DNA from: Somniosus microcephalus
Taxonomy: Eukaryota
Length of the DNA: 64,000 nt
Direction of reading: 5' to 3'
Assembly: GCA_052327205.1 (NCBI GenBank)
Contig: CM126208.1
Coordinates: forward strand, 245,768,001-245,832,000
Positions within the stretch are counted from its first letter, which is position 1, and each line of letters starts with the position of its first letter. Shown one piece after another: positions 10,954-64,000 of this stretch. The notes under the pieces were generated by a model that saw nothing but the letters and a program-made list of their open reading frames with translations, did not search any database and was not told the origin of the DNA. Both the position numbers and the translations under genes were made by a program.

Positions 10954-11298
10954 TTTTAAATAAATCAGTTCTAGAGAATTGAGATAATTATGACATAAAA
11001 TCAGGCATTTTTATCTATTATTGATTGAGTAGCTGTTCCTTTAAATCCAGTCACGGAACATTATCAAAATTCCAGTTACTAATCGATTATGGTTGCGCTG
11101 GTTTATGGGAGATATTACATTCGGGCATATGGTAATGAGTTTGAACGGAAACCCGGGCATAAATCCACCTTGGCAAAACTGGCGCAGTGTCCAGCGCATT
11201 CTGGGTGCATTTTACAGAATGCACCTTTAGCGGAAACTCAAGGCTACAAAACAAATGTATTTAAAGCTCTGTACCAAGCTTATTTTGACAATGTTGTA

Positions 11299-34000: not shown

Positions 34001-34057
34001 ATGGAGGGGCAGTTCATGTCGGCCTGTGGTGTGTGCTGTTGTACAATATGTTTTATT

Positions 34058-34692
34058 ATGGGAGGAAGGGGCGATTGAGAGGGAGGGGGGAGATTGGGAG
34101 GGAGGGGGATGTTTGGGAGGGAGGAGCGATTGAGAGGGGGATGATTGAGAGGGAGGAGCGATTGAGAGGGGGATGATTGGGAGGGAGGAGCGATTGAGAG
34201 GGGGATGATTGAGAGGGAGGGGCGATTCAGAGGGGGATGATTGGGAGGGAGGAGCGATTGAGAGGGGGATGATTGGGAGGGAGGAGCGATTGAGAGGGGG
34301 ATGATTGGGAGGGAGGAGGGATTGAGAGGGGGATGATTGGGAGGGAGGGGGCGGTTGGGAGGGGGTGATTGGGAGGGAGGGGGCGGTTGGGAGGGAGCGA
34401 TTGGGAGGGAGGAGCGATTGAGAGGGGGATGATTGGGAGGGAGGAGCGATTGAGAGGGGGATGATTGGGAGGGAGGAGCGATTGAGAGGGGGATGATTGG
34501 GAGGGAGGGGGCGGTTGGGAGGGGGGTGATTGGGAGGGGAGGGGGTGATTGGGAGGGGGTGATTGGGAGGGAGGGGGCGGTTGGGAGGGGGTGATTGGGA
34601 GGGGGTGATTGGGAGGGAGGGGGCGGTTGGGAGGGGTGATGATTGGGAGGGAGGGGGCGGTTGGGAGGGGTGATGATTGGGAGGGAGGGGCC
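34058..34692 (+). repeat. G-rich minisatellite (GGGAGGGAGGAGCGATT-like), left part
   Basis: Direct tandem variants of gattgggaggg. The array continues after the Gypsy at 39095. Confidence 0.95.
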
Positions 34693-34702
34693 TCGTGGAC
34701 GG

Positions 34703-37700
34703 TGATGTAGAAAGACTACTGAGCACTTGGTTTGAGTATAAAACAAGGCTTTAATCAACTGTTTCACAACCATGAGATTCTAGTTACATCACTAGTTCCT
34801 GGTTACAGAAACATCCTGAGCAAGCTGGGCCCACGCCTAAGTATTTATACTCCTTGGATGGCACCACCAGCTGGCCGCCCAGTGTTACTTCATGAGTCAT
34901 GATAAGATTCATGACATCCTTCCCGCCTGAAAGTTTTGGAAGTCCGACGACTTCCTTCTAGTGGATTAGGTGGACTTCGCTTGTGGCTGGAAGGCACATC
35001 TCCTCGGACCGTGTCTTCGTCCCTGGGTCATACTGGTAGATCGACGGGGCCCGTGTCGCTTTGATCGACCTGCGGAAGACTGGGGAGATCGTGACTCCGG
35101 GTGCGGGTCCCCACAGGTGCAGAACTGGCATCATCTTGGTTGGTAGCCGGAGATTGACAGGCGTCCTGGCTTTGGGTGGCCATTCCATGGGAAGCGCCCA
35201 GCTCCCCGAGTTGATCCGGTGGAGTAGCCGGCAGATCCCTTGATGTCCCAGGTAGGGCGTCATCCTCAAAGGAGTGCAGAGCGTCGGCATCATTAACACG
35301 GGTTCCTCTACCAGTTGGGTCTGTGGGACTGGTCGGACAGGGAGCCAGATCTCGGAGTGAAAAGGTGGACTCACGGCCATCAGGGTACTGCACGTGCGCG
35401 CAAGCGGGATTAACGTTCGTTAGTTCCACCTCGTTGACGTGGGGATCATTTTTGGAAGATCGGACGAATCTTCAGAGCAGCACGGGGCCGGGAGCTGCCA
35501 ACCATGATGGTAGAGACGTCCCATGAGTGGAGCGACGCTGGAACCTGAAGAATCGTTCGTGAGGAGTAACGTTGGTGGACGTAGAAAGAAGAGACCTGAT
35601 GGAATGCAACATGTCAGGGAGCACAGTTTCCCACTGCTGGTCTGGTAGGTTGCGTGATCTCAGTACAAGATGAACAGCATTCCAAATGATAGCGTTGTAT
35701 CTCTCAACCTGTCCGTTACCGATGGGATGATACGGTGTCGTTTTACTTGTGGCGATTCCCTGTTGGGAAAGATAATTTTTGAGTTCATTTGACATGAAGG
35801 AGGGACCCTGATCAGAGTGGATGAAAATGGCCGTACCGCAAAGGGAAAAGACTTGATCGAGGCATTTGATCACTGTGGAAGTAAGCATATTGGGACAGGG
35901 GAAAGCAAAGGGAAAGCGTGAATATTCGCCCACCATAGTAAGCAAGTAGGTGTTTCGCGTTGAGGAAGGCAATGGCCCTTTAAAGTCAATGCTGAGTCGC
36001 TGCATAGGCTGCATAGCATGTATGAGCGAGCCATCCGACGGACGGAAGAATTGCGGTTTTAATTCCGCACAAATTCTACAGGTGGAGCATGTTCTTTTCA
36101 CATCTTCCGTAGAAAATGGGAGATTTTTAGATCACACAAAGTACAACATACGGGTAACGCCAGGATGGCATAAGTCAGTATGAAGATCCGCAAGAGCCGA
36201 AGTTGACATAGAAGAGCAGAATGCACGCGTGAGGGTATCCGGGACTACATTCTCTTTGCCGGGTCGATAATGTATGGTGTAGCCAAAGGCGGCCAATTCC
36301 ATCTCCAGACCTGTATTTTGTTATTCTTGATCTTAGTGCATTTCCGGTTATCCAGCATAAAGGCCACGGAGCGCTGATCAGTTATAAGTGTGAAATGGCA
36401 ACGAGCGAGAAAATGACTCCATTTACGTACAGCTTTGATGATAGCCGTAGCCTCCTTCTCGGCAGGAGGATAATGGAGCTCGCTACCCTGCAAAGTTCTG
36501 GACAGAAATGCCACGGGTCGACCACCTTGATTCAAGGTAGCAGAGATCGCCACCTCCGATGCATCGCACTCGACCACGAAAGGAAGATTTTCATCGATGG
36601 AACGAAGCGTGGCTTTTTCCAGTTTTCCAGTTGTCGCTTGAGGAGGCTGAAAGCTGAAATAGCCGTTGCCTCCAACGGAAATGACTTTGCATGAAGCAGG
36701 GGCTGGATCTTGTCGGAGAAGTGGGGTATCCACTTCACATAATAGGCGAACATGCCGAGTGCCCGACGAAGAGAGCCGAGATTCGTAGGGGGAGGGAGCT
36801 CCTGAAGCGGACGAAGTTGCTCCGGATCTGGTTTGATGACACCATTGCCCACCCAGTAGCCAAGGATGTTGACTGATGGTACTGATTTCACAGATTTGGA
36901 CTCATTTAAGGTTAAGCTGCGACGACGGAGAACGTCAAAAAATTTCTGGAGGTTGGCATCATGCTCCTTCTGGTCATGACCAGCAATGGTGATATTATCC
37001 AGATATGGAAAAGTGTCCGTTAAGTTCTCCTGTTTGACTAGGCTATCCATTGCCTGTTGAAAGACGGCCACCCCATTGGTGACCCCAAATGGAAGGCGAC
37101 AAAACTGATAAAGCCAACCATTGGCCTCAAAGGCCGTATACTTTTTGTCAGAGTCCTTTAACGGCACTTGATGGTATGCGCTCTTTAAATCAAAAGTTGA
37201 AAATACCTTGTAGTTGGCAAGGTTATTGACCATGTCATCGATGCGTGTTAGTGGGTAGGCATCCAGGTCGGTATACTGGTTAATAGTTTGTGAATAATCG
37301 ACGTTTCTTGTGTTGCTTCAGAGGATTTTTAACAACGACGACTTGAGCCCGCCAGGAAGATGAACATGGCTCAATGATACTGTCAGCTAGAAGGCGAGAG
37401 ATTTCTGCCTCGATAAAGGATCGATCATCTTGGCTGAAACGTCGTGATTTAGTGACTATGGGCTTACATCAGGGGGAAAGATTGGAAAACAAGGAGGGCT
37501 CATCGAGCGAAGCCGCCAAAAGCGCACAAAACGATACTTTGGAAATAGTAAGCTCCAGCTTTGACCCTCCAAACTCGAAAGTGAGTCTTTTGTGTTGTTT
37601 CTGGAAATCCTGTCCCAGGAGCACATCACTGCATAGGTGTTTGAGCACCCCGAGCCGGGTGGAGAAATAAGTGCGGCCATTGAGAATAAGGTCGACAAGA

Positions 37701-39094
37701 CAAAAGCCGGAAGAGTTGGTGGTCAGTGTCGTCAGAGCCATTGCAATTTCCCTGTCTGAGGGGTAAATACGTAGTTTTAACTTACTGACAGCCCGCTCAC
37801 TAATGAAGCTGTCAGAGCTGCATGAGTCGATTAGTGCACTCAAAATGTGTCCATTTACCGAAACCTTCATGGCTGCATGGGACAGACTTTGGGGAAAAAC
37901 AGCTGTGATGGGAGGAGGGGCAGTTTTACCCTTGACAGCTGTAACCTTAGTAGTGGTTCTTGGGGGAGGAGTAGTTTTATAGATAGTAGCTGCAAAACTA
38001 ACAGGGGCTCTCGACTGGTATACCTTAGAAAAATGGCCTTTCTTTACTGCAATGATTGCAGACTGCGTTACGAGCAGGACAAAATTTCCTGGAATGCGCC
38101 TCCACAGAAGAAACACTTCCTTCCAGATTGCCAAGATGCCGCTAGGGCAAGGTTGTCATCAGCCAGGTGGGAGTCATCATCAGTGAGGGCTTCCACCTGA
38201 GGCCTGTCGAAGAAGTCATTAAAAGTGATAGCAGCAGCCCGTGAGTGGTGAAAGATAGGTATCTGCATTCCTCTTTGCCAAGTCCAGAGAGCATGCCTGG
38301 TCATAGGCAACCTCTAACTTGAGGGTTTTATTCTCCAACAGACGCTGACATATGAAGGGAGACGCAATCTCATTAATAAAGGAGTCACGAATTAATTCCT
38401 TCTGGTACTGCTCAGCTGTGACAGCTTTAAGATTACAATCCTTGCTGAGCCTGTGAAGTTTCTGAAGGAATTCGCCAAGTAATTCCCCGGGTTGTTGTCG
38501 AGTTGTGGCCAGTAGATGCCGAGCAAAAATTTCGTTTGGGGACTTAACATATAGTTGCTGTAGTATTTGGATAGCGGCGTCATAGTCTACACAGTCTTCG
38601 ATATAGTCAAACACATGAGGGGATACATAGTTGGCAAGCATTCGTAACTTATTAGGAACATTCTCACCACACTCCTCAAGGAAGTTGCTAAAGGTACGAT
38701 ACCAGTGTTTCCATACCTTAGCAGCTGTAAGTGAATTTGGGTCCAGGTCGAGAGGGGCGGGTCTGAGTAGTTTCTCCATGATGGATCGATTACTTTGTCC
38801 GAGTTCCCTTCTACGGTTTGAGCCGTAGCCGTCTGTTCCCAAGACCAGTCAGAGTGTGGAGCAGGTTCAGTTGATTAAATTGATGTAAAAAGACTGCTGA
38901 GCACTTGGTTTGAGTATAAAACAAAGCTTTAATCAACTGTTTCAAAACCATGAGATTTCTAGTTACATCACTAGTCCTGGTTACAGAAACATCCTGAGCA
39001 AGCTGGGCCCACACTCGAGTATTTATACTCCTTGGACGGCACCACCAGCTGGCCGCCCAGTGTTACTTCATGCGTCATGATAAGATTCATGACA
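34703..39094 (-). mobile_element. Full-length but decayed Ty3/Gypsy LTR retrotransposon inserted in the minisatellite
   Basis: 214-bp LTRs at 34703-34916 and 38881-39094 (TGTCATG...ACATCA on minus). PPT caggcgggaagga. Order gag (MEKLLRPAPLDLDP), protease (LIDSCS), RT (FDLKSAYHQ, LPFG, YLDN), RNaseH (VECDAS, EKEA), integrase (LSIDFKGP, IHSDQG, NGQVER). Multiple frameshifts. Confidence 0.93.
34958..38779 (-). pseudogene. Frameshifted gag-pol of the Gypsy element
   Basis: ORF pieces 38219-38842, 37469-38134, 36532-37233, 36245-36733 and 35472-36101 carry consecutive domains in different frames. Confidence 0.88.
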
Positions 39095-40325
39095 AGGGGT
39101 ATGATTGGGAGTGAGGGGAGCGATTGGGAGGGGTTGGGCGAATGGGGAGGGGGCGATTTAGGGGGTATGATTGGGAGAGAGGGGGCAATTGGGAATAAGG
39201 GGAGCGATTGGGAGGGAAAGGGTGATTGGGAGGGAGAGGGCAATTGGGAGGGGGATGATTGGGAGGGGAGCGATTGGGAGTGAGGGGGTGATTGGGAATA
39301 AGGGGAGTGATTGGAGGGAAAGGGCGATTGGGAGGGAGGGGAGCGATTGGGAGGGGATGATTGGGAGGGAGGGAAGCGATTGGGAGGGAGGGGAGCGATT
39401 GGGAGGGAGGGGAGTGATTGGGAGGGAGGGGAGTGATTGGGAGGGAGGGGAGTGATTGGGAGGGGATGATTGGGAGGGGAGCGGTTGGGAGGGAGGGGAG
39501 CGATTGGGAGGGATGATTGGGAGGGGAGCGATTGGGAGGGGAGCGATTGGGAGGGGAGCGATTGGGAGGGGAGCGATTGGGAGGTGGTAATTGCGAGGGG
39601 GATGATTGGCAGGGGGCGATTGGGAGGGGGTGATTGGAAAGGGGGTAATTGGGAGGGGGTAATTGGGAGTGAGGGTAGCGATTGAGAGGGGGTGATTGGG
39701 AGGGAGGGGGGAGATTGGGAGGGAGGGGCGATTGGGAGGGGTGTGATTGGGAGGGAGGGGGCAATTGGGAGGGGTGATTGGAGGGGGCGATTGGGAGCGA
39801 GAGGGCGATTGGGAGCGAGAGGCGATTGGGAGCGAGAGGGCGATTGGAGGGGCGATTGGGAGTGAGGGGGCGATTGGGAGCGAGAGGGCGATTGGGAGCG
39901 AGAGGGCGATTGGGACGGGGGAGCAATTGGGAGGGGAGCGATTGGGAGGGGAGCGATTGGGAGGGGTGATTGGGAGTGAGGGGCAATTGGGAGGGGTGAT
40001 TGGGAGGGGGCGATTGGGAGTGAGGGGGCGATTGGGAGCGAGAGGGCGATTGGGAGCGAGAGGGCGATTGGGAGGGGGCGATTGGGAGGGAGGGGGCAAT
40101 TGGGTGGAGGGGGCGATTGGAGAGAGGTGATTGGAAGGTGGGGGCAATTGGAAGGGAGGGGAGCAATTGGGAGGGGATGATTGGGAGGGGAGCGATTGGG
40201 AGGGGGATGATTGGGATGGGGTGGGATTGCGAGGGGGGCGATTGGGAGTGTGGGGAGCTATTGGGAGGTGTGTGATTGGGAGGAAGGGGGCAATCGGTAG
40301 AGAAGGGTGGCGATCGGGAGGAGGC
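39095..40325 (+). repeat. G-rich minisatellite (GGGAGGGGAGCGATT)n, right part
   Basis: About 1.2 kb of 15-19-bp variant units. Confidence 0.95.
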
Positions 40326-46420: not shown

Positions 46421-49400
46421 TGTTGTGTATGTACCTTTAAGAGAATAACTGGTCTCAGGCTGCAGTACCGGCAGTGACCACCCCTGTATAAAAGGCGCTA
46501 GAGAGCCTCTGTTGGTTAGTTTCGTTTATGCCTTTCACCAGTAAAGACTTGTTTGTTTCTCTCCTGCTAGTCCGTGTCTCAATCATTCACGGACTTAACA
46601 CTGGCGACAAGTTAGAAACGAACTTACCTGCAACTCAGCAGCAGCTCCGACGACGTGTTGAAGGTCGGAGCCAGAAGAAAAAAAAAAATAGGCCATTGAA
46701 ACTCGAGAAACGGGCGTCGACCGTCAATCATCGACTTCAAAACTTGCAGGAGAGACTGTCCAGAGCCAGGCTGGGTTCCTCAGTCCATGGTTTCCCAGCT
46801 AATCGGGCTGGTGGCAGGTAGTGCTCTGATCCTTCCTGGGCTGCAACGGGGCCGGGCAGCGAGTCGGGAAGCAAGGAGAGATAGAGAGGGTGGAGCATAC
46901 AGGGCGCGGCCGGTGTTTCGAAGCTGGGCAGCGTTCGGACCTCAGAAGAGGGAGGGAAGTGTTCCAGAGGGTCCGCTCCATGACGGGAAAATAATAAAAG
47001 AAAAAGAATACGCGCAAGAAACCGTGGAAAGCAGCGCTAACAACAGCGGGGAAGAAGGAAAAGCGCGGGAGGCGCCATTTTGTTAAATCGGAGAAGAAGG
47101 CAAAGCGCGGGAGGCGCCATTTTAGATTTGCAAGATGCCGAAGACTGGCTGTATCACTGCTTTTGATAATACAATAGAGGACTGGACCACGTATGTGGAA
47201 AGAGTCGAGGTATATTTCGAGGCAAATGAAATAGCGGAGGGGAAAAAGGCATCAATATTGCTAAACGTAATGGGCGCTAGAATGTGCGGCCTATTGCGGG
47301 ATCTGATTACTCCAGCCAAACCAAAGGCGAAGAGTTTTAACGAAATTGTTGCTGTTCTACAGGAGCACTTAAACCCTGCACCGCTGTTGATAGCAGAAAG
47401 ATTTAAATTCCACAGGAGAACTCAGCACAAAGATGAGAGCAATGCTAAGTATCTTACGGAACTACGCAAGCTATCAAAGCACTGCCAGTTCGGAGCAGGA
47501 CTGGCAGATACCCTACGGGACAAATTTGTCTGTGGACTCCTGAGTGAAGGAACACAGAAGAAGTTACTCTCAGAGAAAGAGCTGACGCTAGATAAGGCTT
47601 TCAGCGTGGCAGTATCGTATGAAGCAGCAGCCAGGGGAGCTGCAGAAATTCAACAAAAACCACAGGAATACGGCACCCACGAAATGACACGGGGATTTGC
47701 AAAATGTTATCGCTGCGGCAGAACTAACCATGACCAGAAGGACTGCTGGTCCAAAGACAAAATATGCAGACAATGCGGGAAGATTGGACACATTGCACAA
47801 GTTTGTAGGTCTGGGAAGAAGACCAGCGACAACAGAAAGGCTACAAAGGAACCGTACAAGAAAGTACATAAGATGAGCGATAGTGAATCCGAGAACAGGA
47901 GATTAAGCTGTCTCAAACTTCACAATGTAATCTCAAAAGAGGATCACCGAACCATTTGGGTCACCCTCACGATAGCAGGGTCCCAAGTTAAAATGGAATT
48001 GGATACAGGATCAGCGCTAACCGTCATGAATCGACGAGACTATGAGCAGCTATTTTCACACATACCCTTGAGAGAGACATCCATCGTCTTGACGACGTAT
48101 ACGGGGCAAAAAGTATACCCCAGGGGAAAAATAAGGGTGCCTGTCGAATACAATGGCAAGAAATTACGGAAATTGTATCTCTACATACTGCCAAATGGTG
48201 GACCACCGTTATTGGGACGGGAATGGGTCAGGAAGATAAACTTAGATTGGCATTCCATTCATGCAATGACGGTGGACGGTAAAAAAGATGAAGACGTCAC
48301 TCCTGGACGATTGTCAACAATCTTAGCTAACGCCAAAGAGGTATTTCAACAAGAACTGGGCACGCTTAAAGGCGTAACCGCCTCGTTAAAAATAGAAGAG
48401 AATGCAGTTCCCAAGTTTTTCAAAGCGAGACCGGTACCATATGCAATTCGTCCAGCCGTCGAGGCAGAGCTGGAGAATCTGGAGAAGGCGGGCGTGTTGT
48501 CTAAGGTCGACTGGAGCGAGTGGGCAACACCCATCGTTCCTGTCATGAAGAAAACATTAAGCAATAAGTCCGGAGAGCCAAGGAAGATTCGCATCTGTGG
48601 GGATTTCAAGGTGACGGTGAACCCTGTCCTTCACACAGTACAATATCCTCTTCCAAGGATAGAAGACATGTTCGCCTCACTGTCTGGAGGGAAGCGTTTT
48701 ACAAAAATTGACCTAGCACAAGCATATTTGCAGATGGAGGTTGAAGAGTCCTCTAGGAAGTATCTCACGATAAACACTCACAAAGGTCTTTACCAGTATC
48801 ATCGATTGGTATTCGCAGTAGCATCGGCTCCGGCGATATGGCAAAGAGCGATGGAACAAGTCCTGCAAGGGATTCCGGGGACTCAGTGTTACTTGGACGA
48901 CATCCTTGTAACAGGTGAAGATGACAGTGAACACCTTAACAACCTAGAACAGGTGCTCACTAGACTACGGGAACATGGGCTGCGAGCCAACCGCCCCAAG
49001 TGCGAATTTTTTAAGAAACAGATATCGTATTGTGGCCACGTGATTGATGAAGAGGGGTTACATAAGTCCCCTGACAAAATTGAAGCGGTTGTTAAGGCCC
49101 CAGCGCCTGAAAATGTGTCGCAACTGAGGTCATTCCTCGGGTTGGTGAATTAAATTAAGTTTTTGCCGAATTTGTCGACAATTCTGCATCCACTGAACGC
49201 CCTGCTATGAACGGGGGTAGCATGGAAATGGAGCGATGATTGTAAACGTGCTTTTCAGAAGAGTAAGGACTTAATCACTTCAAGGGAAGTATTGGCTCAC
49301 TACAACCCAGCACTGCCAATCAGGCTGGCGTGTGATGCGTCTCCCTACGGCATTGGGGCGGTACTGTCACATAAATTCCTTGATGGTTTGGAGAGGCCGA

Positions 49401-51351
49401 TAGCTTTTGCGTCACGCTCGTTAACTTCTGCCGAGCGTAACTACGCCCAGATTGACAGAGAGGCCCTCACCCTAGTGTGGGGGGTGAAGAAGTTCAATCA
49501 CTATCTGCACGGTCAAAAATTTACTCTACTAACCGATCATCAACCTCTTGTCTCCATTTTCAACCCTCAGAAGGGCGTACCGATAATGACAACACAACGG
49601 CTGCAGAGATGGTCCCTTTTCCTAGGGGCACACCAATATGACATCGAGTACAGGGGAACTAAACAGCATGGAAATGCTGATGGATTGTCACGTCTACCGT
49701 TGCCGACGGTGGAAGAAGGAAACCTTGCAGTGGATCCAATGGAGTTATTCCACTCGACCATAGTCGAATGTCTCCCTGTGACGAATGCAAACATAGAAAA
49801 GGAAACACGGAATGACCCGACACTATCACGGGTCTATGATTTAACGGTGAAGTGATGGCCAGCACATGGCGAACCACTGCTGCCAGCATTTTCGCCAAGA
49901 AGAGAACAGCTGTCAGCGTGCAGAGGAACCTTGATGTGTGGATCCAGAGTAGTAATTCCACCTAAGTTGACGGATAGAGTGCTCAATGAGCTTCATGAGG
50001 GTCATCTGGGTGGGGTAAAAATGAAAAGCTTAGCCAGAGCGTTTGTGTGGTGGCCGGGAATCGATAGAGAAATCGAAGAGATGACCAAGAGCTGAGCAGG
50101 ATGCCAGAAGGTCCAAAACGCCCCACCACAAGCTCCTCTGCATCCATGAGAGTGGCCCTCATCTCCATGGCAAAGGGTGCACATTGATTTTGCTGCTCCC
50201 TTCATGGACTCGATGTTTTTAATTGCGGTGGATGCACATTCAAAGTGGCCAGAGGTAATAAAAATGTCCTCAACCACCACGGAAAAAACTATCACAGTTT
50301 TACGAACCATATTCGCCAGGAATGGGCTGCCTGAACAGATTTGCTCTGACAATGGACCACAGTTTGTGTCTGAAGAGTTCCGGAGGTTCTTAAAGAACAA
50401 TGGCGTTAAGCATTACACATCTGCCCCATATCATCCAGCCACTAATGGATTGGCCGAGAGGTTTGTCCAAACATTCAAGAAGGCTATCAAGGCAATGTGT
50501 AATGAAGATATACCCCTACAACACAAGGTGGACAACTTTTTGTTTGCCTACCGGAATGCGACACATGCGGTTACCAACCAAACTCCAGCCATGATGTTCT
50601 TCAATCGAAGACTACGATGCCGCTTGGATTTGGTTTAGCCAAACGTCCAAAGAGATGTGGAGAACAGGCAGTTTCAGAATATGAATGAAAGGCCGACCAG
50701 GAGTTTTAAGATAGGTCAACCAGTTTTGGCCCGGGACTACCGCACTGAGAAATGGCAGCCAGGAACGATTTGTACACGACAAGGACCTCTCATGTATACC
50801 GTGGACGTTGGGGAGAGCATTGTAAGACGCCATGCTGACCAGATTCTAGAGTCACTGGAAAACGTCAACTCCACACCACGATCTGATACACCTGGTAATG
50901 AAATCGACGTTCCAATTGCAGCTACCGCAGAACCGGTAATATTGCACGCAGATGAACCAAACAACGACATTGATTCCGACTCAACATTGCCAGAAGAACC
51001 TAATACTCCAAAGAGGCGTTATCCAGACAGAATCAGGAAGCCTCCTCAAAGACTGAACTTATAATTGCTTAAACTTAACCAATGTATCTAGCAACAGTAA
51101 TTGTGATTGTAATTCGTTATCATTAGTTGTTAAATGAATGTTATGTACTGTTTATCTAAAAGGGGAGGAATTGTTGTGTATGTACCTTTAAGAGAATAAC
51201 TGGTCTCAGACTGCAGTACCGGCAGTGACCACCTCTGTATAAAAGGCGCTAGAGAGCCTCTGTTGGTTAGTTTCGTTTATGCCTTTCACCAGTAAAGAGT
51301 TGTTTGTTTCTCTCCTGCTAGTCCGTGTCTCAATCATTCACGGACTTAACA
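46421..51351 (+). mobile_element. Full-length Ty3/Gypsy (Mag-like) LTR retrotransposon
   Basis: 180-bp LTRs at 46421-46600 and 51172-51351 (3 differences). 5-bp TSD GACAC. PBS TGGCGAC. PPT aaaaggggagga. Confidence 0.96.
47135..51064 (+). pseudogene. Single-frame gag-pol (2x CCHC, protease LDTGS, RT YLDD, RNaseH CDAS, integrase HIDFA/SDNG/ERF) with several premature stops
   Basis: ORF pieces 47135-49153, 49292-49855, 50177-50638 and 50657-51064 are all in the same frame, separated by stop codons. Ends RRYPDRIRKPPQRLNL*. Confidence 0.93.
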
Positions 51352-52782
51352 GACACTAGAGAACAATTAAACAGGTCTTTACTCCATGGAGGTGCCACGA
51401 GGACTCCCTGGGTGGTCCTGTGGTTTGCGACGTGACATCATCGCGTTTGCCCGTGTTTTCCCGCGCTCTTAAAGGGGCCACGCCCCGTACATGCAAACTC
51501 TATATACAAAACACAGTAATGCTTAACACAATGGTACAGGTTTAGGCTGGTGTTAGAACATCATTAAAGAGAATTATATACAGTTAGCCAGAGTCATTCA
51601 GTGGTTCTGCCACAAGCTCAGAGTTTTTGAGCTGGAGTATGAGGTGCAGACATTGCAGGGCATCAGGGATGGGGAGAGATACCTGGACACTTTGATCCAG
51701 GAGGCAATCACAGGTTAGGTAGTGGTACAGGTCGGGTTAGTGGTCAGGGACAGGAGGGTGTGACTGCAACTCAGGCAGGTAAGGAGACCTCAGGTGCAGT
51801 ACTGCAGGAACCTCAGCCTTTGCCCTTGTCCAACAGGTATGAGGGAAAAGCCTGCAGGATGGATGAGCAAGCTGACCATGGTGCAGGAGGCCTTTCAAGT
51901 GGGGGGAGTGAAAGGGAATGTAGTTGTGGTAGGGGACAGTATAGTCAGGGGAATAGATACTGTTCTCTGCAGCCGCAACCAAGAGTTTCAAAGGTTGTGT
52001 TGTCAGCCTGGTGCCAAGGGCTAAAGACATCTCCTCGCGGCTGGAGGGGAACTTGGGGTGGGAGGGGGAGGATCCAGTTGTCGTGGTCCACGTAGGAACT
52101 AATGACATAGGTAGAACTAGGAATGAGGTTCTGCTGAGGGAGTTTCAGGAGCTAGGATCCAAATTAAAAAGCAGAACCTCAAAGGTAAAAATCTCTGGAT
52201 TGTTACCTGAGCCAAGGGCAAATTGGCCTAGGGACAAACAGAGTAGAGGTTTAAATGCGTGGCTCAAAGAGTGGTGTGGCATGAAGGGGTTTCAGTTCAT
52301 GGGGCACTGGCACCAGTACTGGGGAAAGAGGGAGCTGTTCCGTTGGGATGGGCTCCACTTAAACCGGGCTGGGATCAGTGTCCTGGCGAACCGAATAATG
52401 AGGGCAGTAGACAGGGCTTTAAACTAATGAAGCGGGGGGGGGGCGGTAGGAGGATTCAGGAAAGAGTAAATTTAAAAGCAGCGAGAGAAATGTCAAGGCT
52501 CTAGAGCAGAGTAGAGTTTTGGGTAAAAATAAGCAGAGTGGGTCAGGAAGGGACAGAGAGAGTAACAAAGGTAATAAGACATCAGTGACTAAGGTGACAT
52601 CAGGGAAAAAGAGAAATAAGTGGTAAGATTTGTTTTTGTTCTGTTTGAGTATATTTCTGCTAAGTAGATCATAGCCTATCTAATAGAGGGAAGTGCTGAT
52701 TGGTGGGTAGCTGTTGAGTGTTTCTTGTTAAGTTTTAAGTTTATTTCTGCTAAATTAACTCCATAGTCTTGGTGATAGAGGC

Positions 52783-54112
52783 ATGGCAGGGCAGCTCAGT
52801 CCTGTGATTTGCACATTCTGTGCCATGTGGGAAATCTTGGACGCTTCTTGCGGCCTGGACGCCCACGTGTGCAGGAAGTGTCGCCAACTGCAGCAACTCG
52901 AGCTCCAGGTTTCGGAGCTTGAGCGGCAGCTGGAGTCACTACAGTGCATCCGCGAGGCTGAGAAATACTTGGAAAGCACCTTTCTAGAAGTGGTCACCCC
53001 GCAGCCTCAGAATGTGTATGCAGAGGGGAAATGGGTGACCGCCAGACAGAAAAGGAGGACCTGGCAGGTAGGGCAGGAATCCCCAGAGTGCATCTCGCTC
53101 GCTAACCGGTTCACAGTTCTGGAAACTGGTGGGGGTGATGGTTCCTCCGGGGATTGCAGCCAGAGCCAAGGCCACGGCACCAAGGGTGGCTCAGCTGCAC
53201 AGGGGTGGAGGAAGAAGAGTGGGAGAGCAATAGTGATAGGGGATTCATTGGTTAGGGGAAAAGATAGGCATTTCTGTGGACGCAGACGTGACTCCAGGAT
53301 GGTATGTTGCCAGGTGCCAGGGTCCAGGATGTCACTGAGCGGCTGCAGGACACTCTGAGGGGGGAGGGTGAACAGCCAGAGGCCGTTGTCCATATCGGTA
53401 CCAACAACATAGGCAGAAAGAGGGATGAGGTCCTGCAGGCAGACTATAGGGAGCTAGGCGAGAGATTAAAAAGCAGGACCTCAAAGGTAGTAATCTCCGG
53501 ATTACTTCCGGTGCCACGTGCTGGTGAGTACAGGATTCGGAGGATAGAACAGATGAATGCATGGCTGGAGAGATGGTGCAGGAGGGAGGGTTTTAGATTC
53601 CTGAGGCATTGGGATCATTTCTGGGGAAGGTGGGACCTGTACAAGCCAGATTGGTTACATCTCAACAGAGCCGGGACCAATATTCTCACGGGGAGGTTTG
53701 CTAGTGCTGTTGGGGAGGGTTTAAACTTGCTTGGCAGGGGGATGAGCACCAGCATATAGGAGTAGAAAAGATGAATAAGGCGCATAAAAGAGTTCGTGTG
53801 TTGGATAGCACTAGAGAAGAAAGTAGTACTAGAGGCGGTAGTAGTACCATATTAGAGAGGAGCAGACTAAGAAACACTACGAAAAATTCAAAAATGGGTT
53901 TTGAATGCATGTTCGTAAACGCACAAAATGTGGTGAATAAAGTTGGTGAGCTACAAGCACAATTAACCATGTAGCAATATGATGTTGTGGCAATAACGGA
54001 AACGTGGCTTAAAAACAGTGAGAACTGGGCACTTAGTATTCAAGGGTACAAGGAGTTCAGGAAAGATAGTGAAGGATAAAAGGGAGGTGGGATGGCAGTG
54101 CTGATTAAGGAA
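52783..54112 (+). pseudogene. Second CR1 LINE 5' portion: ORF1 (esterase, frameshifted) and start of ORF2 endonuclease
   Basis: VICTFCAMWE...HVCRKCRQL, IVIGDSLVRG, VHIGTNN, PDWLHLN, then FVNAQNVVNKVGEL...VAITETWL. Confidence 0.85.
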
Positions 54113-54115
54113 TAA

Positions 54116-54199
54116 TGTAAGAAGTCACACAACACCAGGTTATAGTCCAACAGCTTTATTTGAAATCACAAGCTTTCGGAGCGCTGCTCCTTCTTCAGG
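54116..54199 (-). mobile_element. Penelope-like element terminal fragment with minimal hammerhead core
   Basis: Minus strand CTGAAGA-aggagc-agc-gctcc-GAAA-GCTT-gtgatttcaAATAAA. Confidence 0.65.
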
Positions 54200-54264
54200 A
54201 AGACATGTCCTAATTCTTCCATTTACATATGGCTGCCACTGAGAGACTGGGCACTTCTTAAAAA

Positions 54265-55390
54265 CCTAAGAATTAGGAGCAGGAGTCGGCCATACGGTCC
54301 CTCGAGCCTGCTCCGCCATTCAATAAGATCGTGGTGATCTTCGACCTCAGCACTTTCCCACCCGACCCCCATATCCCTTGATTCCCCGAGTCCAAAAATC
54401 TATCTATCTCAGCCTTGAATACACTCAACAATTCAGCATCCACAGCCCTTTGGGGTAGAGAAGTCCAAAGATTCACAATCCTCTAAGGGAAGAAATTCCT
54501 CCGCAGCTCAGTCTTAAATGGCCGACCCCTTCTCCTGAGACTATGCCCTCTAGTTCTAGACTCCCCAGCTAGGGGAAACAACCTCTCAGCATCTACCCGG
54601 TCAATCCCCTTCAGAATCTTACATGTTTCAATGAGATCATCTCTCATTCTTCTAAACTCCAGAGAGTAGAGGCCCAATCTACTCAATCTCTCCTCATAGG
54701 ACAGCCCTCTCATCCCAGGAATCAATCTAGTGAACCTTTGTTGCACCACCTCTAATGCAAGTATATCCTTCCTTAGACAAGGAGACCAAAACCGTGCGCA
54801 GTACACCAGGTGTGGTCTCACCAAAGCCCTGCACAATTTTAGCAAGACTTCCTTACTCTTGTACTCCAACCCCTTTGCAATAAAGGCCAACATGCCATTT
54901 GCCTTCCTAATTGCTTGCTGTACCTGCTTGCTAACTCTGCGTTTCCTGTACGAGGACACCTAAACCTCTCTGAACACCAACATTTAATAGTTCCTCACCA
55001 TTTAAAAAATATTCTGTTTTCCTATTCTTCGTAGCAAAGTGAATAACCTCACATTTCCCCCACATTATATTCCATCTGTCACCTTATTGCTCACTCACTT
55101 AACCTGTCTACATCTCTTTGCAGACTCTTTGTGTCCCCCTCACAGCTTGCTTTCCCACCTAGCTTTGTATTGTCAGCAAACCTGGATACATTGCACTAGG
55201 TCCCTTCATCTAAGTCATTAATATAGATTGTAAATAGCAGAGACCCCAACACTGATCCTTGCGGCACCCCGCCAGTTACAGCCTGCCAACTGACCCGTTT
55301 ATCCAAATTCTCTGTTTTTTGTCCATTAACCAATCCTCAATCCATGCTAATATATACCCCCAACCCCATGAGCCCTTATCTTGTGTAAAC
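54265..55390 (-). mobile_element. CR1 LINE 3' fragment
   Basis: KANGMLAFIAKGLEYKSKEVLLKLCRALVRPHL...RTRGHSL. Confidence 0.9.
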
Positions 55391-56103: not shown

Positions 56104-59100
56104 TGTTAAGTATGTGTATTGTATTGAACAATTAACACAAAGACTTAAACGTATAACTCAAACAGGTCTTTACTGGTTGGAGGTAGGGACTATACTGAAT
56201 ACAAGATTACTGCACAGTGCTTATATACCGGTGTGTTCACCCCCGGTATTACGTCTACAGCAGCCTGAGAAAGTAGTACATCTCTTAAGGTGGAACAGGC
56301 TTAAGCTCTCTTAAGGTGGAACAGGTTACATACACAACACTCCTCCCTTCTTAGCTTTATAGTCATCCCCCCATTTAACATAACGTAATAACATATATAC
56401 ATATATAACTTCATGTTTAACGTAACATATCACAGATTCAGTCTCTGCGGAAAACAGTTCACAGATTCAATCTCTACGAACAGTTGCAACATACTCTTAG
56501 TGGGAACAGTTTACAGGTTCAGTCTCTGTGGGAACAGTTCGTAAATTCAGTCTCTGATCTTAATTCGTTCCAGACAGCATCTTTTCGTAGTGTTCGGCCG
56601 GAGGTAGTAGAAGTAACAATATTTTAAACAATTATTATTTTCGGCCTCTTCTTTTTCTTTTCTGCCTTTTTACAACTCTTGTCGTTCCCATCTTCTCGGC
56701 GGACAGCTGTAATGCTACCAACTCTCTATGTTCTTTAGACCTTAAGTGCTTCCTCCGGATTTCAACACTTTGGGAGTTTCCATCACAATTTGGGCATACC
56801 ACATCCTCGTAGTATTCACTATCACTCAACAGGTCGAGAGGCCCTTCTACTTCTTCCTTACCCAACTGGACGCTATCCGACTGCTGTTCCTTCTCTATCT
56901 CTCTTACTTCCCGTAGTAGAGCCACCTTCTTCCGATGTTCCGTAGACTTTTGGTGCTCCTCCATGATTTCTGCACTTTGGGGGTCGAAGTTACAAGCTGG
57001 GCAGGACAGGACATCGTAATATTCGGAGTCGTCCGACAGGTCATGGTAATATTCGGTGTCGTCCTGAGCTAGGCCAGCGAGAGGGTCGTCTATTTCCTCC
57101 ATACCCAGCTGGACGTTAGCCAGCTCTTGTTCCAAATCCAGACATCTTTCCTGAAGAGACTTCTTCATGTGTACCTCTGCATCCAGCTTTTTCTGGGCTT
57201 TCAGCAAGTCGTTTACTAGTGACCTCATTTGTGATTTTAATACTTCAACTTCCTTTGGAGATTGATTGCTCGGACTATGCAGTCCCTCTACCGGAGCAGC
57301 TGTTTCAGCGGTCTGTTGTTCTACATTGACGTGAGTCAGCGTACTTTTGGCATCCAATGGCTGCTCTGTTGCAGTCGTTTCAGTCTGTGTCGTCACATCA
57401 GCCATCTCAATGACTTTTGAGAGCTCCGAACCCTTTTCCTTTGAAGATCGCAGCTCGTGTTCAAGTTTTTCCCATTTCAGAGTCTTGTCCCTCAGCATAT
57501 GAAGGAGTTGGCTGACCGTTAACTCTTCTGACACCAGATTATGGCACGCACCTTCAGAACCTGAATCAGCTTTGATTCGTTCGGCCTCCTCGCGCAGATG
57601 GTTGGTGTGCTCCTGCTCCATTTTCTCCATCAGTTGCTTCTGTTGCCTTTCCAGATTCTCCCACTCTGTAACAAAGAACTTTTTTATTTCATTCATCTCT
57701 TGCTCAAAACGGCGAATCATTTGTTCTAATTGCTGTTGTAGTTTGAAATGGAGTTGAGTTCGAGCCCAGTGTCCCTCAAAAATGTGCATATCAGTAGACT
57801 TGACAGACTCAGAATTCTCTGTTAAACTATGTTGTTGTTGCTCAGTGGAATTCTGTGCTGAAACTTTGTCTTTTGCACATGGGTTGGTCTTACCATCATC
57901 AGTTCTAGAGTCTGGGCTGATTATCTGCACCGAGTTCTCACTCTTTATGGCTTTTAGCGAATGCCAGTCCATATTTATGTTTCTAAACCACTCCCGGCCT
58001 AGTAGTGGTGGACCTCCCTCCGGTAGCACATATAAGTCCATTATTTGACTTCCTTCGCCCTTGTTGGCCACTGCAACCTTTATTGTCCCGATGGGGTACA
58101 CTCTCTGCCCCGTGTAGGTTGTCAATATAATCTCCGTATCCTGTAGGGGAATATGTTGGAATAACCTTCTGTAATCTTTCTTATTCATGACCGACAATGC
58201 CGATCCAGTGTCCAATTCCATTTTTACTTGGACTCCTTCTATCTGAAGAGTAACCCAAATTGTCTGGAGGTCTGCACCCTTACCAACGTTGAGTACCCTT
58301 AAGCTAGCCAGTTCAATACTGCTTGCGTCTGAATCGGACTCCTGTTCGGCCACCTTGTGTACCTTTGCGTATTTTCCTTGCGGTGACTTCTTGTTGCTGG
58401 TCTTCTTCCCTGACCTGCATACTCTAGCTATATGTCCAAGCCTACCACAAGTTCTACATTCTTGGTTTTTAAACCAACACTGGTTCTGATCATGCGTTGT
58501 CTTTCCACAACGATAACATTTAACAGAACTCACACCCAATTTGTGTGCACTGAGCTCCAGTGACCGTAGCTGCATTACTGCCATGCCTCTCGCTGCGGCT
58601 TCGTGTGCTGCTGCCATAGTGACCGCCTTCTCAAGCGTCAGCTCATTCTCCTCGAGCAGTCGCTTTTGTGTATCCTGTTTAAATAAACCACACACAAATT
58701 TGTCTCGTAGTGCATCTGTCAGTCCCGTTCGAAACTGGCAATATTTCGCTAATTTACGCAATTCCAGCAAATATTCAGCATTGCTTTCATGCTGTAGCTG
58801 CCTTCTGTCGTAAAATTTAAATCGTTCCGCTAGCATCAGCGGCGTGGGGTTTAGATGATCTTTCAGGACAGTAACAATCTCATCGAACGTCTTATCCGCC
58901 GGTTCATCTGGTGATAACAGGTGTTTCAATTGCCCGTATGTCTTCGCACCCATTAAATTTAATAATGTTAGTGCTTTATCAGCCTCGCGAATTTTATTGG
59001 CCTTACAATAATTTTTAACTCGTTCAACATATATGGCCCAATCTTCGATGTCACTATCAAAGTTGCTAATATTCCCGTGTTTAGGCATTGTAGTACTTTA

Positions 59101-59906
59101 TCAGATTTGCAATTTCTCAGATTTTTTTTTTTTTTACTGCTATCCAAGATGGCGGCTTCCCGCTCTTGCCGTCGTCCTCCGCCCACAAAATGGCGGTTTT
59201 CCCGCGCTTGGCGGTCTTCACCCGTCCCCCGACGCCGTCTCCCTTCAGCCCCGAGTGCGGCCCTTATCTCCGCCGCGATCGATGGCCCGCGCTTTTCACC
59301 GCGGCTCTCGCACCTTCAGTGTCTGCCGACGCTGCGCCTTTCAGCCCGAGTGCGGCCCTTATCAGGGATTTCGATCGATGGCCCGGCTGCGCCTCGCACT
59401 TGAAAGCGGCCCGGCCCTTATCAGTGCTTGCGATCGATGGCCCGGCTGCGTCCCTCACTTCAAAGCGGCCCGGCCCTTATCTGCCGATCGCTATCGCCCT
59501 GTACCTCTCTCTTCCCCAGTCCTGTCTTCTACTCCGGTTCACAAGCTGATGGAGGCTTCAGGGTCCTAATGCCTGTCGCTTCCAGTGGGGTGGTGAGTGG
59601 TGAGGTTTGAAACCTCTCTTCAACCGCCGTGGAATAACTGCCGCAGGGTAAGAACCTGACTCGTCGCCAGTGTTAAGTATGTGTATTGTATTGAACAATT
59701 AACACAAAGACTTAAACGTATAACTCAAACAGGTCTTTACTGGTTGGAGGTAGGGACTATACTGAATACAAGATTACTGCACAGTGCTTATATACCGGTG
59801 TGTTCACCCCCGGTATTACGTCTACAGCAGCCTGAGAAAGTAGTACATCTCTTAAGGTGGAACAGGCTTAAGCTCTCTTAAGGTGGAACAGGTTACATAC
59901 ACAACA
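56104..59906 (-). mobile_element. Young non-autonomous Gypsy LTR element carrying captured host coding fragments
   Basis: Identical 236-bp LTRs at 56104-56339 and 59671-59906. PBS TGGCGACGAG next to the 5' LTR. PPT aagaagggagg next to the 3' LTR. No RT, RNaseH or integrase core. Confidence 0.95.
56635..59088 (-). CDS. Chimeric 817-aa Gag-protease fused to STK10/SLK-like, optineurin-like and 2x DNAJC21-like zinc-finger segments
   Basis: aa 1-380 are colinear with Gag-PR of the 47135 element (two [18 protein letters not shown]). aa 438-507 is a PKK coiled coil. aa 508-656 contains EELTVSQLL...TQTE...MKKSLQERC. aa 659-817 has two CPxC...H...H fingers and a basic tail. Uninterrupted ORF. Confidence 0.9.
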
Positions 59907-61402
59907 CTCGCGATATTTAGCGGGGCGCTAATGGCGGCGTTAGCCTGTAGTGCTGCGCCGCCACCGATTATGTCATCAGTGTGCGCAGCGCCCCGCTACC
60001 GCCCCGAGCGCCATATTAGGTCGCGCCCGCCTCTTCCGCGCCGGCCGCAAATAGCGACCGGTACACAGGGGCCTACCTGTGGCGGTAGTGGGGCGAGTTA
60101 AGGTGGAGGTGCGGCCGACCGCTTTTTCGGCGGCCGCCTGCCCGCACCTCCGTCCCCGGCCTCCTACACCCCCCCCCCCGCGGCATTGCCGGCTGTTTCC
60201 CGAGAGCCCGGCACTTCTCCTTGGTGCCGGGCTCATTTGCCGGCACTCGCGAGCGGGGATCGCGCTGTTGCAGGCACCTCCCCCTTAACAGTGGGCGGAA
60301 GGCCTGCAGTACCATAGCCTGCCGTGCCGCAGCGGGTGGCGCTGCGGCACTTTGCGCGCCGATATTCAGTTTCAGCGCCCCAAGCGGGGCGCCGAAAGCC
60401 TTGTGTAGCGGCCGGCTTCCACTTGGGGCACTGAAACTGAATATCCCGATGGCGCAAGTGGCTCCGCGCGCAGCGGTAATTCCGGCGCCCAGGCGAGCTG
60501 GGCGCCCCAAACTGAATTTTTAGCCCAGAATGAGTTCACTATTGTGATGTTCTGTTCACACTTAGAAGTAATTTCCTCAACACACATACATGCAAACTCA
60601 CACTATGACACTCTTAAGCAAGAATCAGGTCCCTTTAATGGCCACATAACGAATAATGAAGTTCTAGTCTGTTTCCTATTGCAGATATGTCCATTGTTTT
60701 ACGTAAAATGGAAGCGTGTTCAACAAGCTGAACTGTCTGAGAACTGTGCTAAATTTGTGGGATGTAGACATAACACCATCGTGCAGCTGGGGGTGGGAAT
60801 TGGGTGCTCTATGATGTTCTTCTACTTGACCTCCTGAGTGTAAACACTGAACTACATGCAAAAGTAACACTATGTATACACACAGATGGTTGCATTGAAC
60901 TTTGAAGCTTGGATTACGGGGTGGTCAAGTATATATTTTAAAAAATGGCCAAAGACTGGAAATCTGAAAAGAAAAAGATGCTGGCATCACGGAGCTAGGC
61001 CCATCAGTAAAAATGCAATTTCCAGCAATTTCTGTGGTTGTTATGCTAACTGGAGCTTGTCACTACAATCAAAAGGATTGGAATTCTGGGTTATTTAAAG
61101 CCTCAGTTATATAGCCACTTTCATGTCTATGCAAAGTCACTTCAGCCATGCAGCAAAGCTCTGGAGTCAAGCACTGATAGGACTCTGAAGCACAATAGAA
61201 CTGGAGCAATATGAGACCATCTGGGCTTGGGCTAGACTCCGTGTGAAACCCAGTTTTAAAAGTGCTCAGGAAGTCCACTGGACCTCTTGGGCACTTTACA
61301 AACTTACGGCAGAACCATTTTTAAGGTTATGGGAAAGTGGATATTCCTGCCCGCGCTCTCCTAACATTAGAAAAAGTGCTGTGGCAACAGGACTCTCTCC
61401 TA

Positions 61403-64000
61403 AAAACATAGAAACATAGAAGATAGGAGCAGGAGTAGGCCATTCGGCCCCTCGAGCCTGCTCCGCCATTCAATGAGATCATGGCTGATCATCCAAATTC
61501 AGTACCCTGTTCCTGCCTTCTCTCCATACCCCTTGATCCCTTTAGCCTTAAGAAATATATCCAACTCCTTCTTGAATATATTTAATGAATTGGCCTCTGC
61601 TGCCTTCTTTGGTAGAGAATTCCACAAGTTCATCACTCTCTGGGTGAAGAAATTCCTCCTCATCTCTGTCCTAAATGGCTTACCCCTTATTCTTAGACTG
61701 TGACCCCTGGTTCTGGACTCCCCGACCATCGGGAACATCCTTCCTGCATCTAGTCTATCTAGTCCTGTTAGATATTTATAAGTTTCAATCAGATGCCCTC
61801 TCATTCTTCTAAACTCCAGCGAGTACAAGCCCAATTGACCCACTCTCTCCTCATTCGTCATTCCTGCCATCCCAGGTATCAGCCTTGTGAATCTTCGCTG
61901 CACTCCTTCCATGGCAAGAACATCCTTCCTCAGATAAGGCGACCAAAACTGCACACAATACTCAAGATGTGGTCTCACCAAGGCCCTGTACAACTGCAGC
62001 AAGACATCCTTGTTCCTGTACTCAAACCCTCTCGCTACGAAAGCCAACATACTATTTGCCTTCTTAACCGCCCGCTGCACCTGCATGCTTACCTTCAGCG
62101 ACTGGTGCACAAGGACGCCCAGGTCTCATTGCTCTTCCCCTTCTCCCAATCTATGGCCATTCAGATAATAATCTGCCTTCTTGTTTTTGATACCAATGTG
62201 GATAACCTCGCATTTATCCACGTTATATTGCATCTGCCATGCTTCTGCCCAATCACCCAACCTGTCCAAATCATACTGGAGTTTCTCGGCATCCTCCTCA
62301 CAGCACACACGCCCACCCAGCTTTGTGTCATCTGCAAACTTGGAGATATTACATCTAGTTCCCTCGTCCAGATCATTAATATGTATTGTGAATAGTTGGG
62401 GTCCAAGGACCGATCCCTGCGGTACCCCACTAGTCACTGCCTGCCACTCGGAAAAAGAGCCGTTTATTCCAACTCTTTACTTTCTGTCTGCCAACCAGTT
62501 CTCTATCCAAGTCAATACCTTGCCCCCAATCCCATGTGCCTTAACTTTACACGCTAATCTCTTATGCGGGACCTTATCGAAAGCCTTTTGAAAGTCCAAA
62601 TACACCACATCCGCTGGTTCTCCCTTATCTATTTTACCAGTTACATCCTCAAAAAATTCCAGTAGATTAGTCAAGCACGATTTACCTTTTGTAAATCCAT
62701 GTTGACTTTGTCCGATCCGGTCACTGTTTTCCAAGTGCTCTGCTATTACATCTTTTATAATGGACTCCAGCATTTTCCCCACTACCGATGTCAGGCTTAC
62801 CGGTCTGTAATTCCCTGTTTTCTCTCTACCACCTTTTTTGAACAGTGGGGTAACATTAGCTACCCGCCAATCCATGGGTACTGTTCCAGAGTCTATCAAA
62901 TTTTGGAAGATGACCAGCAATGCATCCACTATTTCTAGGGCCACTTCCTTAAGTACCCTAGGATGTAGATTATCAGGCCTTGGGGATTTATCGGCCTACA
63001 ATCCCGTCAATTTCCCTAACACCATTTCCCTACAAATACTGATTTCTATCAGTTCCTCCCTTTCATTAGACCCTATGTTCCCCGACATCTTTGGGAGGTT
63101 ATTTGTGTCCTCCTTTGTGAAGACAGAACCAAAGTATGTATTTAATTGGTCAGCCATTTCTTTGTTCCCCATTATAAATTCCCCTGATTCTGACTGCAAG
63201 GGACCTACGCTTGACTTCACCAATCTTTTTCTCTTCACATATCTATAAAAGCTTTTACAGTCAGTTTTTATGTTCCCTGCAAGCTTACTCTCATACTCTA
63301 TTTTCCCCCACTTAATTAATCCCTTTGCCCTCCTTTGTTGAATCTTAAACTGCTCCCAATCCTCAGGTTTACTGCTTTTTCTGGCCAATTTATATGTCCT
63401 CTCCTTGGATCTTATGCTATCCCTAATTTCCCTTGTTAGCCACGGTTGAGTCACCTTTTTTGTTTTATTTTTATGCCAAACTAGGATGAACAAATTCTGT
63501 ATTTCATCCATGCGATCTTTGAATGTTTGCCATTCCCTATCCACCGTCAACCCTTTAAGTGACATTCCCCAATCAATCGCGCCTCATACCATCGTAGTTT
63601 CCTTTATTTAAATTCAGGACCCTAGTCTCTGAGTCAACTACTTCACTCTCCATCTTAATGAGAAATCCTATCATATTATGATCGCTCTGACCCAAGGGGC
63701 CTCGCACAACAAGATTGCTAATTAATCCTTTCTCGTTACATAATACCCAGTCTAAGATGACCTGATCTCTAGTTGGTTCCTCGACATATTGGTCCAGGAA
63801 ACCATCCCGTATACACTCTAGGAATTCCTCCTCCACAGAATTGTTACTAATTTGGTTAGCCCTATCTATATGTAGATTAAAGTCACCCATGATAACTGCT
63901 GTGCCCTTATTGCACGCTTCTCTAATTTCCCTTTTAATGCCATCCCCGACCTCCGCATTATTGTTTGGAGGTCTATATACCACTCCTACTAACGTTTTCT
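61403..64000 (-). mobile_element. Relatively young CR1 LINE, ORF2 (endonuclease-RT) with a few frameshifts, continuing beyond the window
   Basis: [48 protein letters not shown]. 3' (CTATGTTT)n tail. Confidence 0.95.

Follow-up and report, generated by a model that had tools for sequence, protein, structure and literature searches.

The window, a 64,000-nucleotide stretch of Somniosus microcephalus DNA, contains on its minus strand a 3.8-kb non-autonomous LTR element with a single 817-amino-acid ORF (59088 to 56635). Two identical 236-bp LTRs with TG...CA ends (5′ LTR, 59671–59906; 3′ LTR, 56104–56339) enclose a primer-binding site that adjoins the 5′ LTR (TGGCG..., 59660–59670), a 5′ leader with 59-nt GC-rich tandem repeats (59089–59659, repeat family D6) and a polypurine tract (56340–56354), giving the locus the paired LTRs, primer-binding site and polypurine tract by which LTR elements are recognised structurally. 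The ORF begins with gag (amino acids 1–224, 58417–59088), in which a capsid-like region is accompanied by two CCHC knuckles (zf-CCHC match below the Pfam cut-off). An aspartic protease with an LDTGS motif (amino acids 279–369, 57982–58254) was recognised from the translation and a gag-asp_proteas match that is also below cut-off (E 6e-5). The ORF carries no RT, RNase H or integrase after the protease. Pol is instead replaced by pieces of STK10 and optineurin (OPTN) and by a zinc-finger tail, and the protein ends in a basic C terminus (56635–56673, including the stop codon). A basic run also ends sister subfamilies, and the basic end may be NLS-like.

The gag-protease (gag-PR) region shares 68% amino-acid identity with a gag-pro-pol element of the same genome. 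The element has no RT of its own; the likeness of its gag-PR to that of a window neighbour with an RVT_1 match and to that of a 5.7-kb gag-pro-pol element suggests that it is of Ty3/Gypsy type. Exact 5-bp target-site duplications flank 17 of the 19 copies with both ends covered (22 stretches were examined, three of which had only one end). The exceptions are L239 and the window copy, whose flanking 5-mers agree at only three of five letters. A search for an autonomous helper with the window-type protease end, made with one exact pattern, gave no matches, a result that does not imply absence.

A preliminary description of this DNA proposed the capture of a central OPTN coiled-coil segment, and the four motifs that it drew on are all present, in order, on the minus strand within the 817-amino-acid ORF. 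A protein search with ORF residues 505–675 returned OPTN (best E 2e-48), and the top-scoring matches belong to sharks. Each of the 33 proteins retrieved carries OPTN/NEMO Pfam domains; 28 are named optineurin, three are hypothetical and two are unnamed. In a pairwise comparison, ORF residues 518–666 match sawshark OPTN 228–384 at 110 of 157 positions (70%, E 5e-58). Window positions 57574–57092 correspond to five separate exons of the OPTN gene of the same genome (G000:C17:85.879–85.890 Mb, located with a C-terminal probe), at 77–94% nucleotide identity and without introns. The donor was therefore a spliced RNA, and capture of OPTN RNA itself is near certain. The span first assigned to OPTN (57121–57567) is indeed OPTN-derived, but the true stretch is slightly wider, and the STK10-derived sequence that flanks it had been missed.

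The OPTN stretch consists of a short and a long piece. The short piece (57532–57574; 91% nucleotide identity to host C17:85879057–85879099), delimited by its junctions, is a stub of the leucine-zipper and LIR exon, entered through a 9-nt microhomology with STK10. The long piece (57092–57538) is a helix–linker–helix covering OPTN 228–384 and, by protein and nucleotide matches, joins four host exons without introns. Only residues ~130–140 and 228–384 (sawshark numbering) are kept in the window copy. A search of the OPTN cargo for a back-splice showed its exons to be colinear with the host gene. In sawshark OPTN, Pfam places a NEMO-like N-terminal domain at 44–111, CC2-LZ/UBAN at 497–590 and a zinc finger at 641–666, and solved structures cover residues 29–106, 144–178, 504–591 and 636–667. 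We take these regions to be the TBK1-binding, leucine-zipper, UBAN and zinc-finger modules. The OPTN domain list in the available text of PMC5962687 is consistent with this assignment. The window piece contains no TBK1-binding, LIR, UBAN or zinc-finger module, and the preliminary description was correct in regarding the first three as absent.

STK10 also contributes two pieces to the window ORF. The first (57767–57944) is the low-complexity linker of a large exon, with an in-frame internal deletion, and is 90–94% identical in nucleotides to the host exon (G000:C8:167196963–167196718). The second (57566–57777) encodes the PKK coiled coil (PF12474, E 4e-12) and joins two host exons on C8 without their intron, at 88–95% nucleotide identity to these exons and 75% amino-acid identity to STK10 616–692. 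A search with the STK10 region gave 78 matches, nearly all named STK10 or STE20-like kinase. Intron-less host exons in place of internal ORFs between two LTRs characterise an LTR-mediated retrocopy.

The acidic tail (56674–57090) contains two duplicated C2H2 fingers with CxxC-12-H-5-H spacing (57003–56935 and 56796–56728, minus strand), and the less-diverged finger of sister copies lies above the PF12171 cut-off. We presume that the finger donor was DNAJC21-like. Atlas clusters that pair zf-C2H2_jaz with ZUO1-like_ZHD at 0.82–0.88 are leads only for such a finger, and the host DNAJC21 gene was not found via PF21884, near RAD1 or beside an ankyrin paralogue on C2. The single locus recovered through PF21884 is DNAJC2-like. 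No homologue of the tail emerged from 391 candidates, a PDB sequence search with the cargo half gave no match at E ≤ 1, and PDB searches with the tail and with the finger gave weak zinc-finger matches only. Relative to L155, the zinc ligands are kept at eight of eight positions in the two fingers against 13 of 38 other positions (Fisher p 0.0008, a value inflated by the choice of fingers with a pattern that contains the ligands). The structure predicted for the cargo from a single sequence consists of long helices with no globular fold, at low confidence (pLDDT 62, pTM 0.28).

Sister subfamilies document a series of captures. Type A (L084–L091; eight loci examined out of 95 matches) runs from gag-PR through STK10 ~385–706 and STK10 ~291–388 to an integrase end, with STK10 as its only cargo. 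A deletion follows in the series, after which OPTN, zinc-finger, ankycorbin-family or myosin-tail-like cargo was added. Type B has OPTN 131 to ~428 placed over the STK10 joint, type C has a trimmed OPTN, and type D, the window type, is trimmed and recombined and has lost the leucine-zipper/LIR region. The OPTN piece is kept in types B, C, K and the window type and is absent from types A and G. Of 60 sister loci, 40 contain an LIR-like motif (one with an internal stop; the other 20 include OPTN-free loci), which was deleted from the window lineage after capture. An apparent TBK1-binding region in sister copies, suggested by HMMER spans from residue ~50, was rejected, as tblastn starts OPTN at 131 and the extension is STK10 coiled coil. 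The insert of L135 has best matches named ankycorbin and ANKRD24. Type G, with 15 element-like matches among 25, carries five exons of a myosin-tail-like gene on C27, presumably CGNL1; a back-splice was sought in this cargo, and its exons are colinear. At least five donor genes were added stepwise in the family, and coiled-coil regions make up four of the five identified cargos. The basic C termini of types B, C, K and the window type come from two different sources. Trees of gag, protease and STK10 differ from one another on comparison, and L218 is 93–99% identical to the window copy in gag and 84–93% in cargo. Gag and cargo have different histories and recombine freely.

The STK10 sequence of type A contains a back-splice. 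In L084, a downstream-exon donor (C8:167191933, followed by GT) is joined to an upstream acceptor (167198433, preceded by AG), exact to the base on both sides. This joint occurs in all eight type-A loci and 12 of 30 zinc-finger loci, and in none of 30 type-B/C or 30 window-type loci; the window copy itself has no back-splice joint. In the six of eight type-A loci where the motif matched twice, entry to and exit from STK10 use a single position in the large exon and are separated by 1,245 nt, which points to one full turn of a back-spliced STK10 circle as the founding cargo. At the entry there is a 7–10-nt microhomology with the 5.7-kb gag-pro-pol element, which is 91% identical over gag-PR. 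A second back-splice, in L135, connects a donor at C13:62873413 to an acceptor at 62861849, so that the end of exon n and exon n+1 precede the start of an upstream giant exon of the host gene on C13. This ankycorbin-family joint was found in three loci representing two genomic copies. Each exon occurs once in the host stretches examined, and hence no genomic tandem duplication was seen. Judged by their exon order, the joints in the sister copies likely derive from two circular RNAs. RNA reads over host STK10 include 69 and 54 reads across the back-splice joint, together with the element-specific deletion. The exon inside the circle has almost no read depth, which indicates that the joint reads are element transcripts and not proof of a host circle.

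The family is young and abundant. All 40 scored genome matches to the cargo DNA are 99–100% identical and lie on many contigs, LTR pairs are 98–100% identical in most copies, and a stop-to-stop frame of at least 820 amino acids is present in 21 of 30 loci examined. Near-identical copies on many contigs and near-identical LTR pairs indicate further rounds of retrotransposition after capture. All 150 scored matches to the tail query are 97–100% identical, and the tail sits in the youngest subfamily seen. Three cargo-bearing elements in 1.09 Mb extrapolate to ~18,000 copies (Poisson range ~4,000–52,000), a figure derived from gene-centred and not random regions. First-look candidates number 16,666 for the tail query and 23,841 for the OPTN query, which are of the same order but are not copy numbers. 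Family copies are likely in the thousands. RNA reads from two runs cover all 30 bins, with 8,537 and 6,497 reads from ~24% and ~31% of the respective runs, both labelled with an organism that also has the element. The stranded run is mostly sense (depth 1,208 versus 42 at 57108–57203), and the other run is more even. The reads carry fixed differences from the window copy and so come from its relatives, perhaps in another species.

Junctions within the family are short in overlap and consistent in frame. Microhomologies measure 9 nt at STK10-to-OPTN, 8 nt at OPTN-to-STK10 and 7 nt on each side of the ankycorbin-family insert, counted without formal randomisation. The window ORF stays in frame across all seven of its rearrangement junctions, an outcome with a chance of ~0.015 at 0.55 each, and sister types add more. 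Shared 6–8-mers between coiled-coil coding sequences are about twice as dense as those shared with pol, and 53–64% of them are in frame. The helical bias and the in-frame bias are therefore partly mechanical.

Purifying selection acts on gag-PR, with weak constraint on the cargo. In a codon model with transition bias, in which comparisons with the host include the host branch, omega is 0.53–0.59 for the OPTN piece (p 0.05–0.10; against the host, 0.53–0.56 with p 0.05–0.07), 0.38–0.40 for STK10 against the host (p 0.01) and 0.46–0.48 for both jointly against the host (p 0.001–0.003). Against sister types B and C the captured pieces give borderline values of 0.56–0.65 (p 0.04–0.14), and gag-PR gives 0.19. 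This model replaced a counting estimate for OPTN (0.39, p 0.003) that overstates constraint. For the tail against type C, omega by counting is 1.1–1.5. Among 44 window-type copies, 15 of them chosen by tail similarity, every variant that breaks the gag-PR frame is private (11 of 72 private versus 0 of 28 shared variants, p 0.03); for cargo plus tail the counts are 5 of 51 and 0 of 8 (p 1, underpowered). Frame shifts follow the zinc finger in L155, L158 and L218. Cargo omega below 1 and kept zinc ligands also fit a specific protein function, as opposed to mere filler. Selection for an open frame across the cargo is an underpowered signal among such young copies, and some sister copies shift frame, which likewise does not favour filler.

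The OPTN fragment probably entered the element when reverse transcription switched templates. Host RNAs would be co-packaged in the particle, as general LTR biology suggests, and at the start of the series RT would enter the back-spliced STK10 RNA. RNase H may then nick the circle near the point of entry, such that copying stops after one turn and RT returns to the element. Cargo would then be gained and lost through further switches, helped by the dense coiled-coil microhomologies. As to what the cargo does, we consider it somewhat more likely than not that the OPTN segment serves as helical filler, exchangeable within a reading frame that has to remain open. The element would supply its own Gag and protease in cis and borrow RT and integrase from a helper. 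Selection would keep translation going to ~300 nt before the 3′ LTR, likely shielding the RNA from nonsense decay, and would preserve a soluble, helical product whose zinc finger folds and whose end is basic, while the identity of the helix would matter little. The OPTN-free types A and G and the trimmed OPTN of type C and the window type suggest that the cargo is interchangeable. Filler alone does not explain the repeated gains, since a plain deletion also gives a short 3′ UTR.

Three other readings of the cargo were weighed against the same data. It is possible, if doubtful, that the cargo is a working substitute for Pol, in which a helical stalk (from OPTN), an RNA-binding zinc finger and a basic nuclear signal are attached to Gag-protease and help own-RNA packaging or nuclear entry, outcompeting the helper. 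This would suit the duplicated finger, which keeps eight of eight zinc ligands while 25 of 38 other positions changed, although that test is inflated by ligands that were part of the picking pattern. The coiled-coil nature of four of five identified cargos also fits but can be explained by composition, and the presence of the tail in the youngest subfamily seen must be set against types A and B, which multiplied without a finger. Basic C termini from two sources in types B, C, K and the window type and a cargo omega below 1 are in keeping with such a module; the tail omega of 1.1–1.5 against type C, obtained by counting, is not. Neutral hitchhiking, with the cargo a by-product of sloppy template switching and only gag-protease and LTRs selected, appears improbable. 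The captured genes are rich in mutual microhomologies, over half of which are in frame, pieces were repeatedly deleted and overwritten, gag and cargo recombine freely (L218), and OPTN taken alone is not significantly below an omega of 1 (p 0.05–0.10), all as expected of passive cargo. The combined cargo omega (0.46–0.48, p 0.001–0.003), the seven in-frame junctions of the window ORF (~0.015) and the kept zinc ligands argue against this reading.

The preliminary description had suggested, as a speculation, that the OPTN piece could act as a decoy against autophagic or innate clearance of retroelement particles, which on this model would involve attachment to host OPTN by way of the central coiled coil. 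In favour of this, the piece is genuine, transcribed and in frame, types B, C, K and the window type all retain it (23,841 first-look candidates), and OPTN oligomerises according to the available text of PMC5962687. We nevertheless regard a decoy as very unlikely. With no known effector surface in the window piece, it could work only by co-oligomerising, and the piece is joined on both sides to unrelated helices that follow a protease. The window lineage lost the leucine zipper and LIR after their capture, the OPTN piece is less constrained than either gag or the STK10 piece, and subfamilies that are OPTN-free or carry other helices also multiplied. In the favoured account of interchangeable helical filler, the OPTN identity of the cargo appears incidental.

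Each ingredient of this history is already known, namely LTR-mediated capture, circRNA retrocopies and multi-gene chimeras. In the LTR-mediated retrocopies of metazoans (Tan et al. 2016, PMC5131818, as described in its accessible text), partial spliced mRNA likewise replaces internal ORFs of an LTR element, with microsimilarity at switch points, multi-gene chimeras, sense orientation, often conserved frame and re-mobilisation as a non-autonomous element. The shark family differs from those described there in its intact gag-protease under purifying selection with cargo fused in one frame, in its stepwise gain of at least five donor genes, in two back-splice captures and in its likely thousands of copies; the word 'circular' is absent from the main text of that report. 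Pseudogenes derived from circRNAs, such as mouse circRFWD2 (Dong et al. 2016, PMC4897178), resemble the shark captures, in the portions of the report consulted, in having non-colinear exon junctions at splice sites, no poly(A) and an association with LTR sequence. These comprise 33 high-confidence copies whose mechanism was called mysterious there. In the shark family, by comparison, an intact LTR element retains one complete turn together with its two switch points, all in the gag reading frame, and two different host circles are likely represented; the joint is no longer present in the window copy. Maize Bs1 (PMC5131818, PMC13317346) is an LTR retrotransposon with three host gene pieces that form a chimeric translated gene. 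It is a plant element for which the available passages mention no circular RNA donor; the shark family belongs to a vertebrate, and its intermediate stages are still present as subfamilies that have multiplied. Crocodilian ERV captures of KIT-ligand and nectin3 (PMC4299795) also involve vertebrate LTR elements and host mRNA, with purifying selection reported. According to the accessible part of that account they are retroviral, single-gene and near full-length, lie beside or replace env and number 6–9 copies; the shark fragments replace pol in a Gypsy-type element. We found no report of this family, of an amplified in-frame multi-stage series or of a one-turn circle fused in frame to gag in the main texts of the open-access literature.

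A broader reading, possible but less likely than not, is that the LTR lineage repeatedly samples circular and linear host RNAs inside its particles and has built from them a Pol-replacing module of coiled-coil stalk, RNA-binding zinc finger and basic nuclear signal that raises its success over the helper. Were this true, successive steps in the evolution of new protein domains within a parasite would be on record in the genome, which would also show directly that an LTR reverse transcriptase copies circular RNA for exactly one turn. The question of how circular RNAs are written into genomes was left open in the available text of PMC4897178, and the two switch points of the one-turn copy and the second, independent back-splice capture make the template-switch model directly testable. 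Thousands of datable copies also offer a resource for asking what a defective element requires of the cargo that it captures. Annotation is affected too, since false OPTN and STK10 'paralogues' contributed by the family run into the thousands in this genome and its RNA-seq, and element reads can mimic a host circRNA.

Within the genome of the window, one relative of the cargo element (L218, at G000:C13:62.89 Mb) carries a window-type gag (93–99%) together with a different cargo variant, which lacks the OPTN stub and has a single C2H2 finger. Read from its sequence, this combination of window-type gag with another cargo marks L218 as a recent gag/cargo recombinant. The cargo of L149, L153 and their relatives, a small subfamily with 15 matches, has been altered by an insertion in the STK10 coiled coil, which consists of five exons, already spliced, from a myosin-tail-like gene. 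The host source of this insert lies at G000:C27:24.528–24.563 Mb, and the gene is probably CGNL1. Both L218 and L215/L268 sit within an ankycorbin-family gene on C13, one of whose introns contains, in the opposite orientation, an element copy that carries the back-spliced piece of this very gene. Window-type copies also occur in tandem on C17, 5.2 kb apart, and there are copies whose ORF region contains a nested LTR (L009, L010, L008, L030).

Among sequencing runs X1–X10, three organism labels (5 runs from 2 studies) contain at least half of the cargo words, and the window-type subfamily may therefore be common to close relatives. All 30 bins are covered by X1 and X4.

When compared with type-B copies and the orthologous frame, the host OPTN gene as assembled (L081) contains a single additional base in both of two adjacent exons (G000:C17:85884781–85884793 and 85885346–85885370). 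These bases would shift the frame, and reflect either a fault in the assembly or a genuinely broken allele. The beginning of the RAD1 coding sequence (profile positions 3–51) is present in about 75 copies scattered through the genome beside GA-rich simple repeats (75 of 78 matches; for example, L220–L223). No gag was seen beside these copies among the matches listed, and they are apparently a separate capture or repeat.

The window contains a second Gypsy-type element on the plus strand (46421–51351), which encodes gag-PR-RT-RH-IN with an interrupted pol. Its LTRs are 98% alike and are flanked by an exact 5-bp target duplication, and its gag-PR is 58% identical to that of the cargo element. 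By reading, fragments at 51957–54959 and 61400–64000 resemble a CR1-type LINE, presumably its ORF1 (esterase-like) and ORF2. Three further stretches, one AT-rich (9205–10959; 18% GC) and two strongly G-skewed (34001–35000 and 39001–40000) with long stop-free frames, are probably simple repeats. Finally, a 27-nt inverted repeat (60361–60445; 93% complementary, spacing 31 nt) lies in a GC-rich stretch adjoining the 5′ LTR of the cargo element.
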